NCBI GenBank assembly: GCA_021780815.1
Contig: JAJXYC010000015.1
Coordinates: 273,796-337,795, forward strand
Reading direction: 5' to 3'
Length of the DNA stretch: 64,000 bases
Source of the DNA: Bacteroidota bacterium
GTDB taxonomy: Bacteria > Bacteroidota > Ignavibacteria > Kapaibacteriales > UBA2268
In this document: piece by piece, positions 42,866-47,373 of the stretch
Numbering within the stretch: the stretch's first letter is position 1
Layout: every line of letters starts with the position of its first letter
The notes under the pieces: model-generated
What the model was told of the DNA's origin: nothing
The model's database searches: none
Seen by the model: only the letters and a program-made list of their open reading frames with translations
Made by a program: the position numbers and the translations under genes

Positions 42866-43972
42866 TTACACTATGTTCATCTTAATTGTTCCTAAATAAG
42901 GTCCTGCAATCATACGGCAGAAATAAACTCCTGGTACCAAACGTTTACCTTCGTCATCCATACCATTATAAGTAATTGAATAAGTTCCAGGTTGATATAA
43001 TTCATAATCTATTAAAGTAGCGAACACATCACCACGCATATCATAAACTTCAATTTGAACTTTTTCTTCTTTCGGAATAGAGAATTGAATTGTTGTACTA
43101 CCAGAGAATGGATTAGGATAATTTTGCATAATTTTATATTCGCTTGTACTCTTATTCATATTTTCAATAACACCAGAAGTATGTGGATTTGGGTGGCAAG
43201 TTGAACATTCCATATGAGTAAATACATTTGCTTGTCCCGAAGAACCATGACAAGATAAACAACCATTAACTCCATCAGTATCTTTAAATGTAGCAACAAA
43301 AGTTTTATTGAAATATGCATTAAGAATTTCAACAGTTTTAGCGGCAATATCACCAACTATTCTAGAACAACGTTCTTTACGCTCTGTATCTCCTGTTTTT
43401 TTCTTTGCAACAAAGCACCATTGACTCACTGATGGGTGACATAAAGGGCTACCTGAAACATTGCTTACTAATGGGTCGTTATATTTTTGTACAGTATATT
43501 TTCCTTGAACTGCAAAATCATTTGCAGTTTGAGTAGGCATACTTTCAGTCATATAATAACCCCAAAGTTCATTAATTAAAGCAGTGGAATCGTTTTTATT
43601 AACACACAAACTAATCATAGCTGCACCACCATTTAAAGTACCGCATAAAGTACCCCAAGAAGCACCGCCGCCACGTCCGTAAAGTACAACTTCCATTGGA
43701 ATATTAGTCCAAGGAGCACCTACTGCTTTTTGAAGCAATGTTAATAATGCTCCAAAAACACCTGACGAACAATCTTTATCATTCCAATAAAGGTCATGAC
43801 CAATAATTCTTGCTTGGTCCGGATCTAAAATAGCATAAGTCCATGGCCATGGATAAGTATCGTCTGCAAATATTTTAGTGGCATTCATTCCTGCTACACC
43901 AATTGCAGCACCAAGAGCTATTTTGCCTCCATTTTTTAAAAATTCTCTTTTTGATATTGTAGTAAGTTCCAT
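42866..43972 (-). CDS. Exported Cys-rich protein with two CxxCH heme-c binding motifs and a T9SS C-terminal sorting domain; Tat-like (KR) signal
   Basis: The N-terminus is SKREFLKNGGKIALGAAIGVAGMNA. Heme-binding motifs CLSCH and CSTCH are present. A C_GCAxxG-like segment (LCGTLNGGA) is present. The C-terminal CTD (GVYFCRMIAGPYLGTIKMNIV) is of the Por-secretion type. Confidence 0.6.
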   Translation of the reverse strand: MELTTISKREFLKNGGKIALGAAIGVAGMNATKIFADDTYPWPWTYAILDPDQARIIGHDLYWNDKDCSSGVFGALLTLLQKAVGAPWTNIPMEVVLYGRGGGASWGTLCGTLNGGAAMISLCVNKNDSTALINELWGYYMTESMPTQTANDFAVQGKYTVQKYNDPLVSNVSGSPLCHPSVSQWCFVAKKKTGDTERKERCSRIVGDIAAKTVEILNAYFNKTFVATFKDTDGVNGCLSCHGSSGQANVFTHMECSTCHPNPHTSGVIENMNKSTSEYKIMQNYPNPFSGSTTIQFSIPKEEKVQIEVYDMRGDVFATLIDYELYQPGTYSITYNGMDDEGKRLVPGVYFCRMIAGPYLGTIKMNIV

Positions 43973-44480
43973 ATTTTATAATCCTCCAAAAAAAATGTAA
44001 TTTTTATAAAAACAAAAATAAAATAATGATTTTAAATAACAATGATAATTATTAAAAATTAATTATTTATGTAATCTTAAAATATTTTATAGTCAATTTT
44101 AAATCAATTCATTTAGTTGAATAAATGTATTTCTTTGTATTTAAACAAATTAAATTATTTAAATATATCCATTCAAAAAATAGTAAAAGTCATTATTTAT
44201 TTAAATTTTATTAAAATTAAATAATAAATTAATTTTATAATACTCTTTAATTATTAAAATTAATTAATTGATAATTTAAAAATATAAAAAATTTCAACCA
44301 TTATTTTCACATATTATATTAGAAATAGTTGAGTATTGCTCTTAAATCAACCTTTGCAAAATATTAATAAGATAAATTAAAAAGTCAAACAAATTTTTAA
44401 TATTTTTTTTAACAATTTTTTGTAGTTTGGAAAAAAAATATTAAATTGCTTTTTTCTTTGTTAAAAATTCTGGGGGGAAA

Positions 44481-44912
44481 ATGCAAAGAATTGAAATCAT
44501 ATCAAATGATTCAGTCCAAGAAAATGATATTTTATTACCACTTTACAGTATGAGTGTATCGGCGGGAATTCCTTTACCTGTTGAAGAGGATATTGAAGAT
44601 GAAATTGATTTAAACTCATTTTTGATTCAGCACCCAAATTCTACATTCTTCGCCAAAGTAATTGGAGATGCAAAAAATTTTGAAGGAATTCGAGATGGAG
44701 ATTTACTTATAGTAGATTCATTTTGTCGTCCAGAAGATGGGAAATTAATTCTGGTGCAAATAAACCACCATCTTGCAATTCGTCGTTATAGAGTTTTTGA
44801 AGGGACTGAATACTTTGAAACTCCTTTAGGACAATTTATCCCGATTCAATCTAATTTTTTTGATACTTTAGATTTCATTGGTGTGGTGAGGCATTTAATA
44901 CATTCTTATTAG
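44481..44912 (+). CDS. UmuD-like S24 peptidase-fold protein that keeps the Ala-Gly cleavage site but lacks the catalytic Ser and Lys (pseudo-peptidase)
   Basis: The product aligns along its whole length with E. coli UmuD. [39 protein letters not shown] corresponds to [39 protein letters not shown]. The nucleophile GDSM is replaced by GDAK and the general-base Lys position reads R (LAIRRYRV). The cleavage-site context [10 protein letters not shown] is retained. Confidence 0.7.
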   Translation: [143 protein letters not shown]

Positions 44913-45001
44913 TTTTTTATTGATATATATATTTTTTATTTTGTTGTGCTTAATGGCACAATATTTGTTATTCTCTTATATAAAATTAATTTAAAAACAG
45001 T

Positions 45002-45430
45002 ATGAAAGCAACACCAAAAGGCAAAATTAGACAAAAATACGGATTTGAAGCTCCTCTTATTCCTGCTAAAACTACAAAGAATAAGGATTATGAAATTTCT
45101 TTGCAAAGTTTGAATGAGAAGTTTAATATTTATAATTTATTAAAAGGCAATCCCCGAGATTATTATTTGGTGCGTGTAAATGGTGAAAGTATGATAAATA
45201 TCGGTATTAACGATGGTGATACTTTAATTGTTAATGCTAACAAACAACCTCAAAACGATAGTATTGTTATTGCCTCATTAAATGGAGAAATGCTTGTCAA
45301 AACATTAAAATTAATTGATGGTAAAATTTATTTAATAGCACAAAATGATAAATTTCTACCAATTGAAATTTTCCCAGAAGAACATTTCCAAATCAAAGGA
45401 ATTGTAGAGTTTGTAATACACAATTTATAA
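45002..45430 (+). CDS. UmuD-like S24 peptidase with intact Ser/Lys dyad but non-canonical cleavage-site region
   Basis: VRVNGESMINIGINDGDTLIVNA carries the Ser nucleophile and GEMLVKTLKL carries the Lys. The N-terminal region (QKYGFEAPLIPA) has Tyr rather than Ala/Cys before the Gly. No HTH domain is present. Confidence 0.7.
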   Translation: MKATPKGKIRQKYGFEAPLIPAKTTKNKDYEISLQSLNEKFNIYNLLKGNPRDYYLVRVNGESMINIGINDGDTLIVNANKQPQNDSIVIASLNGEMLVKTLKLIDGKIYLIAQNDKFLPIEIFPEEHFQIKGIVEFVIHNL

Positions 45431-45480: not shown

Positions 45481-47373
45481 TTAATCTGCGTTGTTTTTGA
45501 AATAATCCAAAATTTGATTTGTATCTTTTTCAGAAACTATTTCTTTTAATTGCTCAAAATTTGCTTGCCGAATTTGCTTGACAGAGCCAAAATGCTTAAT
45601 CAGTTTTTCAGACTTCTTTTTTCCAATACCTTGGATTTCTTCAATTTGAGTATGAATAATTCTTTTTTCACGTAATTTGCGATGATAAGTAATAGCAAAT
45701 CTATGTGCTTCATCTCGTATCTGCTGTAATAACCGCAAGCTACTTGAACTTTTGGGTAAAATCAAAGAATCAGATTTTTCTGGGAAGAAAATTTCTTCTA
45801 ATCTTTTTGCAAGACCTATAATTGTAATTTTGTTTTGAATTTGCAATTCATTAAGAACTTCCCAAGCAGCAGAAAGTTGCCCTTTTCCCCCATCAATAAC
45901 AATCAAATCAGGAAGTTGAGATTTTTCACTTAAAAGTCGTGTATACCTTCTCATTACAACTTCTTTCATAGTAGCAAAATCATCATTCTTATTCACTGTT
46001 TCATTCTTGAATTTTCTATAATCGGATTTCTTCGGCTTACCATTTTCAAAAACAACTAATGAAGAAACCAAGTCAGAACCTTGAATATGCGAATTATCAA
46101 AACATTCCATTCTTACAGGTGCTTTATTTAAATGTAAATCTCTTTGTAAAGAAAGAACAGCTTTGGAAATAATTTTTTCTCTACTTTCTAAAGCGGCAAT
46201 ATGGTCTTGCAATATCAATTCAGCATTAGAATTAGCCATCTCAATTAATTTACGCTTTTCTCCAATTTGTGGTATACTAACATTAACTTGTGATTTAAAC
46301 TTTTTTTTCAGCCAATCTGTAATATACTCTAAATCTTCTGGTTCAGTAGGTAAAAATATCTCGTTAGGTAAGAACTCATTATTGATATACCAATTTTCAA
46401 TAGTTTTTTGGATAATTTCACTGCTATCTGCTTGCAACAAGTTTTTAATAATAAAATGTTTTCTCCCGAGCAGTTTCCCTTCCCGTACAGTAAAAATTAC
46501 TGTGCATACAAAATCATCTAATGCTGCCATTCCAAACACATCTCTATTTTTTAAATCTGTTGAAACGATTTTTTGATTTGATGAAAAGTCTTTTAATACA
46601 TATAATTTATCTCTAATTTCTTTGGCTTCTTCGAACTTCATTTCTTCTGCTAATTTATCCATTTGACTTTCAATAAACTTTTCTACTTCCTTTGTTTTCC
46701 CAAGCAAAATTTGAATACCTTTTTTTATATTTTCATTATATTGCTCTTGTGAAATATAACTTACGCAAGGTGCTTGACATTTATGAATATGATAATCTAA
46801 ACATACTTTAAATTTATCTTTTTGAATGCTGTCTTTGGTCAATTTTAAATTACAACTTCTCACATAAAACAAGCTTCTGATAATTTTTAACATATTTTTC
46901 ATTAATCGCAAATCGGTATAAGGTCCAAAATATTTCGCACCATCTTTAACTAACCTACGAGTAGAAAAAATTTTAGGGAACTCTTCGTTTGTTACTTTAA
47001 TATAAGGAAAAGTCTTATCATCTTTAAGCAAGATATTATATTTTGGTTTATATTTCTTAATTAAATTATCTTCAAGAATAAAAGCTTCATTTTCAGTATC
47101 TACAACTATATAATCAAAATCGACAATATGCGAAACCATTGCCTTAGTTTTAGCATCTACAAGTCTTCCCTGCTGAAAATATGATTTAATCCTATTTCGC
47201 AAATTTTTTGCTTTTCCAACATAGATAATTTTATTATCTTTATTTTTATGTAAATACACTCCCGGTTTAGTTGTTAAATTCTTAATTTTTTCTAAAAGTT
47301 GATTGCTAATTCCTTCTATGAATTCGATTTTTTCTTCTAAAAGAGATTGCTTGATATTATTAGGAATTTCCAT
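45481..47373 (-). CDS. uvrC: Excinuclease ABC subunit C
   Basis: The GIY-YIG N-terminus PGVYLHKNKDNKIIYVGKAKNLRNRIKSYF is present. A UvrBC-interaction region, an RNaseH-like endonuclease domain and a C-terminal HhH (IQGIGKKKSEKLIKHFGSV) follow. Confidence 0.9.
   Translation of the reverse strand: MEIPNNIKQSLLEEKIEFIEGISNQLLEKIKNLTTKPGVYLHKNKDNKIIYVGKAKNLRNRIKSYFQQGRLVDAKTKAMVSHIVDFDYIVVDTENEAFILEDNLIKKYKPKYNILLKDDKTFPYIKVTNEEFPKIFSTRRLVKDGAKYFGPYTDLRLMKNMLKIIRSLFYVRSCNLKLTKDSIQKDKFKVCLDYHIHKCQAPCVSYISQEQYNENIKKGIQILLGKTKEVEKFIESQMDKLAEEMKFEEAKEIRDKLYVLKDFSSNQKIVSTDLKNRDVFGMAALDDFVCTVIFTVREGKLLGRKHFIIKNLLQADSSEIIQKTIENWYINNEFLPNEIFLPTEPEDLEYITDWLKKKFKSQVNVSIPQIGEKRKLIEMANSNAELILQDHIAALESREKIISKAVLSLQRDLHLNKAPVRMECFDNSHIQGSDLVSSLVVFENGKPKKSDYRKFKNETVNKNDDFATMKEVVMRRYTRLLSEKSQLPDLIVIDGGKGQLSAAWEVLNELQIQNKITIIGLAKRLEEIFFPEKSDSLILPKSSSSLRLLQQIRDEAHRFAITYHRKLREKRIIHTQIEEIQGIGKKKSEKLIKHFGSVKQIRQANFEQLKEIVSEKDTNQILDYFKNNAD

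Follow-up and report, generated by a model that had tools for sequence, protein, structure and literature searches.

Two adjacent UmuD-like genes with complementary defects

The 64,000-nucleotide stretch analysed in this work (the window) originates from a Bacteroidota bacterium of the order Kapaibacteriales (assembly GCA_021780815.1, contig JAJXYC010000015.1, positions 273,796 to 337,795 of the forward strand). It contains two neighbouring open reading frames, ORF1 and ORF2, whose products are both related to the UmuD protein of Escherichia coli (Table 1). An initial annotation, made from the sequence alone, had described two co-directional genes for proteins of 143 and 142 residues, 89 bp apart and devoid of a helix-turn-helix (HTH) motif, and both the coordinates and the domain scans agree with this description. 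The two products match the Pfam model Peptidase_S24 (PF00717; gathering score 23.3) with 53 bits for ORF1 (E = 3.4e-14) and 79.5 bits for ORF2 (E = 2.1e-22), and Pfam and NCBIfam scans revealed no HTH or other DNA-binding domain in either of them. They display the layout of UmuD, i.e. about 140 residues arranged as an N-terminal arm followed by a core. The best-scoring NCBIfam model is also the UmuD model PRK10276 for both ORF1 (75.4 bits) and ORF2 (89.7 bits), below its cut-off of 110, and the lexA model TIGR00498 is matched over its C-terminal half only (43.6 and 72.3 bits, respectively, versus a cut-off of 110.95). A LexA-like repressor identity was considered for the pair and rejected on account of the missing DNA-binding domain.

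Table 1. Coordinates and identifiers of the features discussed in the text
Feature	Sequence	Position	Strand	Description
ORF1 (family 1, predicted substrate-only UmuD-like subunit)	window	44481..44912	+	143 aa; full S24 fold, predicted cleavable N-terminal arm, dead catalytic site
ORF2 (family 2, predicted enzyme-only UmuD-like subunit)	window	45002..45430	+	142 aa; intact Ser63/Lys100 dyad, without cleavage site
ORF1 Ala28-Gly29 codons (gcg gga)	window	44562..44567	+	predicted scissile bond; aligned to UmuD Cys24-Gly25
ORF1 Ala64 codon (gca)	window	44670..44672	+	position of UmuD nucleophile Ser60
ORF1 Arg101 codon (cgt)	window	44781..44783	+	position of UmuD general-base Lys97 (1umu alignment)
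ORF2 Ser63 codon	window	45188..45190	+	predicted nucleophile on ORF1 Ala28-Gly29; G-E-S-M motif invariant
ORF2 Lys100 codon	window	45299..45301	+	predicted general base; V-K invariant
ORF2 N-terminal motif	window	45002-45058	+	residues 1-19
G-run GGGGGGAAA	window	44472..44480	+	abuts ORF1 start codon
Terminator-like hairpin and T-rich tract	window	44942..44963	+	ORF1-ORF2 spacer; 1 site found versus 0.3 expected
Spacer region with hairpin, conserved element and T-rich tract	window	44936-44975		ORF1-ORF2 spacer
uvrC	window	45481-47373	-	convergent on the pair, 50-bp gap
Upstream neighbour	window	42866-43972	-	secreted redox-type protein
DinB-type polymerase gene	L022	6821-7900	-	convergent downstream of the pair
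DinB-type polymerase gene	L038	5125-5982	-	convergent downstream of the pair
Third S24 protein	L012	8259-8900	-
Third S24 protein	L054	8446-9057	+
Lone family-1 gene	L055	4356-4781
Apparent intermediate pair	L056	5968-6842
Tandem S24-S24, Bacteroides thetaiotaomicron	WP_129655751.1			on 842 contigs
Tandem S24-S24, Bacteroides ovatus	WP_050486416.1
Tandem S24-S24, Leucobacter	WP_336653530.1
Tandem S24-S24, Fibrella plasmid	P0097
Tandem S24-S24, Parabacteroides	P0256/P0297
Tandem S24-S24, sequence labels	P0074-P0194, P0245-P0297
Tandem S24-S24, locus	L084	5001-7057
Tandem S24-S24, locus	L085	4001-6316
Tandem S24-S24, locus	L087	4001-6095

The closest sequence match of ORF1 in the PDB is E. coli UmuD itself (8gmt_B, E = 4.2e-21), with an alignment that runs from the arm to the C-terminus (residues 13 to 136). 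Its SVSAGIPLP stretch falls on LVQCGFPSP of UmuD, which puts Ala28-Gly29 at the place of the Cys24-Gly25 cleavage site. In the catalytic core, GDAK falls on GDSM and LAIRRY on FTVKKL, so that Ala64 and Arg101 occupy the positions of the nucleophile Ser60 and of the general base Lys97, respectively. The replacement of both catalytic residues next to a preserved cleavage-site context had been pointed out in the initial annotation; it is found again in the UmuD alignments (8gmt_B and 1umu) and is borne out by profile and structure-based alignments.

ORF2 matches LexA and UmuD' structures in the PDB (E between 7e-16 and 1e-13), the best one being the LexA C-terminal domain 8b0v (E = 7e-16). Its GESM (Ser63) and VK (Lys100) motifs are intact in both PDB and family alignments, and the residues homologous to Cys24-Gly25 of UmuD are Lys26-Asn27, eight residues past Pro18. 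The annotation was therefore right in describing an intact catalytic site and a missing cleavage site, but not in recognizing a mutated cleavage site in Tyr-Gly-Phe. This YGF candidate was rejected since it lies at the wrong position and its glycine is not conserved. In UmuD, the counterpart of the adjacent FEAP sequence is the strand F15-P16-L17-F18, and the residue before FEAP varies widely in the ORF2 family (G/S/T/P/D/N/Q/Y/F). Taken together, the pair contains one Ser-Lys dyad, in ORF2 and not in ORF1, and one Ala/Cys-Gly self-cleavage site, in ORF1 and not in ORF2. As judged from these sequences, the pair belongs to the S24/UmuD lineage and neither protein alone is an autoproteolytic UmuD, either the dyad or the site being absent.

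The ordered pair is conserved as a unit

A profile built on ORF1 and its homologs (family 1) was used to scan one genome per GTDB species. It retrieved 55 loci in metagenome-assembled genomes (MAGs) of Ignavibacteria, Kapabacteria and Chlorobiota, the next matches being true enterobacterial umuD genes. Homologs of ORF1 (n = 28) were at 39-100% identity, and 42 homologs of ORF2 (family 2) were found. Of the 55 loci, 53 carry a family-2 gene 3' of the family-1 gene and in the same orientation. As for the two exceptions, the sequence of L014 stops 246 nt after family 1, and L055 carries a lone family-1 gene, with Asp at the Ser position and an unchanged Ala-Gly, followed by a gene for a leucine-rich repeat protein on the opposite strand. 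The spacer between both genes has a median length of 53 nt; it does not exceed 30 nt in 24 out of 56 cases, and several pairs are separated by only 1-4 nt or overlap. The flanks of the pair are unrelated between clades (e.g. uvrC in the window, but RNase H and M13 peptidase genes in L001) and the pair therefore seems to travel as a self-contained unit.

Both families also diverged in parallel, with pairwise distances that correlate at r = 0.84 across 53 non-identical pairs, a value inflated by shared phylogeny. The family-1 genes of 55 species encode intact proteins of full length, even at identities as low as 35-40%, and no frameshift or stop was seen. The mean entropy of the core is 1.47 bits in family 1 and 1.27 bits in family 2. 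The dead/alive pattern noticed in the window is far beyond chance and recurs in about 55 genomes, and the polarity anticipated for relatives of the window is the same in 53 of 55. A viral-contig scan found no such pair. Many binchicken MAGs that carry the pair (L013, L015, L018, L020, L030, L041, L044, L048, L050, L051 and L058) are titled "uncultured Hyphomicrobiales" or "Chloroherpeton"; judging by their sequences, which look clearly like those of Ignavibacteria/Kapabacteria, these labels are probably wrong.

Complementary decay of the active site and of the cleavage site

All family members were aligned to E. coli UmuD, which yielded 54 distinct family-1 and 53 distinct family-2 sequences. 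At the cleavage site, Ala-Gly is present in every family-1 sequence (54/54). The nucleophile position of the same proteins is occupied by A (14), N (14), S (8), M (6), D (5), E (4) and once each by K, G and T. The serine is thus lost in 46 of 54 sequences and the entropy of this position (2.69 bits) ranks it within the most variable eighth of the core. The general base is a lysine in 37 cases and an arginine in 17. Mapped on the family-1 tree, the serine position underwent approximately 17 changes to eight different residues, and the taxa that retain it (L056, L044, L015, L051, L013 and L026) are scattered. Such dispersed and multiple replacements indicate a relaxed constraint on a redundant active site rather than the emergence of a new catalytic residue. 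What remains invariant in family 1 is the cleavage site, structural Gly, Pro and Asp residues, Thr55 (Thr51 in UmuD) and His141. Beyond Thr55, which UmuD also has, no conserved Ser, Thr, Cys or Lys that could serve as an alternative nucleophile was found in this family; a dyad displaced by a few residues, which would have undermined the initial proposal, is likewise not conserved.

Family 2 is the mirror image, with Ser and Lys both present in 53 of 53 sequences. Ala-Gly occurs at the homologous position in only 9 of 56 cases, SVPAG being among the remnants seen in the family, and the other members show traces of an ancestral SVxAG (SVPIG, SIQRG, SIPTG, SIPLS) or nothing. One locus, L056, differs from this picture. 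Its family-1 protein combines AAG, GESM and VK, i.e. a complete autoprotease, and its family-2 protein reads SIPTG, without Ala at P1. The two proteins are unusually alike, and a joint tree places the family-1 protein with family 2, as expected for paralogs. On the basis of these sequences, L056 is an apparent evolutionary intermediate.

Each family conserves the residues of one protomer role

The 3.3-Å electron cryo-microscopy (cryo-EM) structure of UmuD on the RecA filament (PDB 8GMT) displays an asymmetric dimer (PMC9926225). The cleavage-site region of the outer protomer sits in the active site of the inner one, with the C24 carbon 3.0 Å away from the S60 O-gamma (PMC9926225). The outer protomer contacts RecA through L21, Q23, F26 and P29, and inserts F18 in a pocket of RecA-L2; the inner protomer, whose own arm is disordered, contacts RecA through Y52, F94 and an acidic D91/E93 patch (PMC9926225).

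The two families distribute these determinants between them. Family 1 keeps the outer, substrate set: an aromatic residue at F18 (54/54), A24 and G25, P27 (53/54) and P29 (48/54). It is variable at E93 (E15, N14, D11, T4, H3, G3). Family 2 keeps the inner, enzyme set, with an acidic residue at E93 (53/53), N or D at D91 (51/53), S60 and K97, and shows about 3 bits of entropy at every arm position. The mean arm entropy is 1.23 bits in family 1 versus 2.43 bits in family 2. In other words, each family conserves the residues of a single role, that of the substrate protomer in family 1 and that of the enzyme protomer in family 2.

Single-chain tandem proteins combine a dead and a live S24 domain

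The family-1 profile was also run against 1.84 billion representative proteins and gave 12,312 matches. Among the best 150 of these, 16 proteins of 220-301 residues contain two S24 domains each. Their N-terminal domain carries a near-invariant AGFPSPA arm (A/C-G in 15 of 16) and has lost the serine in 12 of 16, often together with the lysine; their C-terminal domain is armless and retains Ser and Lys in all 16. The same holds in a wider set of 51 tandem sequences, near-duplicates included, where the dyad is present in every C-domain (51/51) and the serine is lost from 47 of 51 N-domains. In six tandem proteins, the N- and C-domains are each other's closest relatives, which implies that the duplications were independent.

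The tandem form occurs in B. thetaiotaomicron and B. ovatus, in one case on a mobilizable plasmid, and databases name these proteins only "S24 family peptidase", "LexA family protein" or "umuD protein". A gene for a Y-family polymerase lies directly downstream of the tandem gene in the three cases examined (3/3) and has the UmuC-type Pfam architecture IMS/IMS_C/DUF4113 in two of them. From this position, the tandems would be the UmuD equivalents of Pol V-type operons. They also serve as Rosetta-stone evidence for a single physical entity in which the dead substrate unit and the live enzyme unit operate together. A phage search with a tandem protein returned only single-domain umuD matches.

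Predicted structures

Modelled alone with AlphaFold2 (AF2), ORF1 adopts a UmuD' core with a predicted local distance difference test score (pLDDT) of about 80-90 and a disordered arm (residues 9-38). As a proxy of the heterodimer, ORF1 and ORF2 were concatenated and modelled as a single AF2 chain with an alignment of 16 natural tandem proteins; this construct has the same architecture and length as the natural 285-residue fusion P0074. The resulting model has a mean pLDDT of 75 and a predicted template modelling score (pTM) of 0.76. Since this pTM exceeds the share of one domain of about 105 residues in a chain of 285, the model is confident on domain packing. Residues 19-27 of the ORF1 arm form a beta-strand in this two-domain model (pLDDT 55-64) and the ORF2 arm is disordered. 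The geometry of this model is suggestive only. Each domain superimposes on UmuD' (1umu/1ay9/8gmt) in Foldseek with TMt values of 0.90-0.94 and a root-mean-square deviation of 1.2-1.3 Å, and fold searches at the chain level in the PDB and BFVD returned single-domain matches only.

The N-terminus of ORF2 deserves a separate comment. Although the arm is otherwise hypervariable and never cleaved, the motif MKAxxxxxIKQKYxFEAP is kept across family 2. AF2 predicts it to be disordered, and a degron, a clamp-binding motif or a polymerase-binding motif are candidates for its function.

Genomic neighbourhood and putative regulatory elements

No umuC was detected in the 64-kb window or beside the pair in the 55 loci by tblastn with the E. 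coli UmuC from L076. Over the window and all loci of the Fibrobacteres-Chlorobi-Bacteroidetes group, the matches of this search were limited to the DinB-type genes of L022 and L038 and to a canonical umuDC, in L081. In L022 and L038, which are the most divergent pair loci, the gene for a DinB-type Pol IV abuts the pair and is convergent downstream of it, with an overlap of 4 nt with the end of the pair in L022. Its product contains IMS, IMS_HHH and IMS_C domains and carries a QLSLDF clamp motif at its C-terminus; it lacks DUF4113. Binding of UmuD to DinB is known from E. coli (PMC6511836).

Clustering of the neighbours across loci revealed clade synteny only, with RNase H in 22 loci and an AmiA-like gene in 17. 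In the window, the pair is followed by uvrC (GIY-YIG, UvrC RNase H and HHH domains), an arrangement of the window lineage that is not conserved in other clades. The upstream neighbour encodes a secreted redox-type protein (C_GCAxxG_C_C) that has CxxCH-like motifs and a C-terminal sorting domain of the type IX secretion system, which speaks for an origin in the Fibrobacteres-Chlorobi-Bacteroidetes group. L012 and L054 contain a third S24 protein of 203-213 residues, possibly a non-canonical LexA-like repressor, in which Pfam recognises nothing over the N-terminal domain of about 115 residues.

Upstream of family 1, a G-run of the form GGGGGGA(A) recurs in most loci (among others L001, L015, L018, L022, L030, L036, L038 and L044). 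In the window clade, where it precedes ORF1 immediately, it is probably the ribosome-binding site. In distant clades, it is located 40-80 nt upstream, often in or beside a small hairpin, with a conserved AGCATAAAG between the G-run and the ATG. A -7 box of the Bacteroidota type (TAnnTTTG-like) is found 5' of the G-run. An Rfam scan of the locus, G-run included, gave no match. Inspection by eye of 54 distinct upstream regions disclosed no SOS-box-like palindrome, and the region of the window contains no GGA-N5-TCC.

The spacer between ORF1 and ORF2 contains a terminator-like hairpin, overlapping an element GGCAyAATAwTTG that is conserved in L004, L012, L005, L006, L007 and L009. The stem shows a compensatory change, from GTGC/GCAC in the window to ATGC/GCAT in L004 and L012. 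This hairpin may act as an attenuator that sets the ORF1:ORF2 ratio, or the region may harbour an internal promoter.

A probable division of labour between two obligate partners

The most plausible explanation for these observations, to which we assign a probability of about 0.72, is that ORF1 is cleaved in trans by ORF2, the two being obligate partners in a heterodimer. The division of labour advanced in the initial annotation, with the second protein processing the first one, is supported by the conservation of the pair (53/55), the co-divergence of its members, the existence of fusions and the role-specific residues, from which we infer the cleavage. The chemistry has a precedent. UmuD cleaves intermolecularly, and in engineered heterodimers UmuD-delta18, which has a live site and an uncleavable arm, efficiently cuts in trans UmuD-S60A, which has a dead site and a cleavable arm (PMC5342242).

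The pair would have arisen by duplication of a UmuD-type gene followed by the complementary degeneration of both copies. Because cleavage in the UmuD dimer is intermolecular and asymmetric, the dimer could remain functional after the active site had disappeared from one copy and the cleavage site from the other, and these complementary losses would then have locked the two copies into an obligate pair. The adjacent genes would be co-expressed and their products would assemble into a UmuD2-like heterodimer. The trigger is most likely the RecA filament on single-stranded DNA, as for UmuD, which would place the ORF1 arm across the ORF2 active site and allow Ser63 and Lys100 of ORF2 to cut between Ala28 and Gly29 of ORF1. 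This cut would free a 27-residue peptide and leave a 115-residue product starting with G-I-P-L-P, whose exposed, UmuD'-like arm would be comparable to GFPSPAADYVEQRIDLN of UmuD'. Finally, and this is the least certain step, the role of the processed heterodimer is most likely to manage a translesion polymerase of the Y family, whose gene would lie elsewhere in the genome. Of the two UmuD' arms in the published Pol V model, only one enters UmuC while the other remains exposed to solvent (PMC11791011), which explains how one arm per dimer could suffice.

Several observations weigh against this scheme. Heterodimerisation, cleavage and RecA dependence are all steps that we infer. In L055, alone among the complete loci in departing from the pairing, the family-1 gene is Ser-less and has no adjoining partner, and no umuC adjoins the pair in the 55 loci or in the window. 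Eight of 54 family-1 members keep the serine (seven of them also the lysine) and nine of 56 family-2 members keep Ala-Gly; in these lineages, cleavage may still proceed in cis or within homodimers. Moreover, the mirror-tree correlation is inflated as stated above, strict co-expression is not proven in the window because its spacer carries the terminator-like hairpin, and the ORF1 arm reaches a pLDDT of only 55-64 in the two-domain model, where residues 29-36 are even below 50.

Part of these reservations feed alternative explanations. ORF1 might be a pseudoenzyme that is never cleaved and whose VSAG arm merely binds ORF2 or RecA filaments as a pseudosubstrate, inhibitor or decoy, thereby regulating a conventional activity of ORF2. 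The dead catalytic site of ORF1, the low-confidence prediction of its arm and the fact that ORF2 alone has everything of an S24 enzyme but the substrate site are compatible with such a role, which we nevertheless consider unlikely. S24 enzymes act on such an Ala-Gly bond when it is held in an intact Ser/Lys site, and cleavage is efficient in the engineered S60A/delta18 heterodimers (PMC5342242). In addition, the invariance of both Ala and Gly (54/54) is a scissile-bond signature, and the sole arm of the umuC-adjoining tandems belongs to the dead domain, bearing in mind that arm cleavage activates Pol V in E. coli. Slightly less probable again is the cleavage of ORF1 by another protease, either a LexA-like S24 repressor such as the 203-213-residue proteins of L012 and L054 or a housekeeping protease, with ORF2 acting independently. 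The fixed adjacency and order in 53 of 55 genomes with unrelated flanks tie ORF1 to ORF2, as do their co-divergence, the fusion of both roles in other phyla and the role-complementary conservation. The isolated family-1 gene of L055 would suit a foreign protease, and a third S24 gene is indeed located 1.3-2 kb from the pair in L012 and L054, but in these two loci only.

We give little credence to the idea of two independent UmuD paralogs that form separate homodimers with different partners, ORF1 being self-cleaved by an unconventional chemistry. E. coli UmuD does homodimerise and some bacteria reportedly possess several umuD genes (PMC13062779). However, no alternative nucleophile is conserved in family 1, where eight residues including Ala, Gly and Met occur at the serine position, a homodimer of ORF2 would have nothing to cleave, and the recurrent fusion of a dead with a live domain argues for a heteromeric unit. 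As for a neutral tandem duplicate in which ORF1 decays to a pseudogene, the loss of both catalytic residues in ORF1 is all that speaks for it. Decay is confined to the active site in a family that is full-length in 55 species, has a core entropy similar to that of family 2 and a better conserved arm. This conservation refutes the pseudogene explanation, whose residual probability is negligible, and the decaying duplicate that the initial annotation had named as a danger to its proposal is ruled out by the pair found in 53 of 55 genomes. Trans-cleavage of ORF1 by ORF2 within an obligate heterodimer hence stands as the explanation that we favour.

Significance

Whether UmuD is cleaved in cis or in trans, and whether both arms of UmuD'2 are needed, has been argued so far from engineered mutants, nuclear magnetic resonance models, a cryo-EM structure of 2023 and AlphaFold models of 2025. 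Lineages totalling about 55 species would have kept the trans route only, with one arm and one active site per dimer, and the fusions beside umuC converge on the same solution. The pair and the fusions would consequently provide comparative evidence that trans cleavage and a single arm are sufficient in vivo. They also offer a case of subfunctionalisation in which an autoprotease is resolved into a separate enzyme and a separate substrate, creating an obligate heteromer. Annotation pipelines, which use "S24 family peptidase", "LexA family protein" or "DNA polymerase V", miss that half of these proteins cannot be peptidases.

A broader generalisation is tempting, although we would sooner bet against it than for it in its entirety. 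UmuD-type proteins might be intrinsically asymmetric machines for which one arm and one active site per dimer are enough. Dedicated substrate and enzyme units would then have originated independently at least seven times, in one case as a pair of genes and in several as fusions. In Ignavibacteria/Kapabacteria, the pair might have been uncoupled from UmuC to become a free-standing, RecA-triggered proteolytic switch, in which the uncleaved ORF2 arm (with its conserved N-terminal motif) and the cleaved ORF1 arm would act on another client such as DinB/Pol IV, the replisome or the clamp. Besides, the tandem form is common in B. thetaiotaomicron/B. ovatus, which makes it relevant to damage-induced mutagenesis in gut commensals, and the two-component version could be exploited as an experimental tool, as the substrate and enzyme roles are separately mutable and titratable.

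Comparison with known systems

Our searches of the full-text literature and of surveys of UmuD, Y-family polymerases and the SOS response of Bacteroidetes, with most subscription journals outside this coverage, brought up neither a natural pair with split roles nor the tandem fusions; within the same limits, the impression of the initial annotation that the arrangement is undescribed is consistent with this result. Compared with E. coli UmuD, the pair shares the fold, the size, the lack of a DNA-binding domain, a homologous cleavage site in ORF1 and a UmuD'-like arm (G-Phi-P-x-P...IDLN). It differs in that a single gene product is both enzyme and substrate in E. coli, whereas the pair would split these roles over two mutually dependent products, and in that umuD belongs to an operon with umuC, which does not adjoin the pair. 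The UmuD/UmuD' heterodimer of E. coli is transient and inactive in mutagenesis, its intact arm delivering UmuD' to ClpXP (PMC5342242). A complex of ORF2 with processed ORF1 would likewise possess one intact and one cleaved arm. It would however be the only processed form, so that this arm asymmetry must be functional or the ORF2 arm otherwise used.

Other members of the S24 superfamily can be compared as well. LexA, lambda CI, UmuDAb and the non-canonical LexA of Bacteroidetes (PMC8565304) share the S24 catalytic domain, but neither ORF has the N-terminal winged-HTH or CI-like DNA-binding domain of these repressors. HumD of phage P1 (49.2 bits for ORF1 and 26.7 bits for ORF2 with the NCBIfam model, cut-off 120) is a UmuD relative devoid of a part of the autoproteolytic cycle. 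It lacks the arm altogether and needs no cleavage. ORF1, by contrast, keeps an invariant cleavage site.

Parallels for the split itself are found in artificial heterodimers and in the tandem proteins. The tandems display the same split of roles in the same order, with a dead N-terminal unit bearing the arm and a live C-terminal unit, but in one polypeptide with an armless C-domain, produced by independent duplications and encoded upstream of a UmuC-type gene. In the laboratory, McDonald et al. reportedly worked as early as 1998 with heterodimers of UmuD-S60A and arm-defective or non-cleavable UmuD. These engineered heterodimers combine the same defects as the pair: the subunit whose site is dead offers a cleavable arm, and the subunit with the live site, itself uncleavable, cuts it in trans, efficiently so in vitro (Murison et al. 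2017, PMC5342242). They are nonetheless mutants of a single gene made in the laboratory, in contrast to a natural pair that is anciently fixed and conserved. To conclude, the chemistry and the trans geometry were already known, but their repeated fixation into dedicated enzyme and substrate genes or domains appears to be new.

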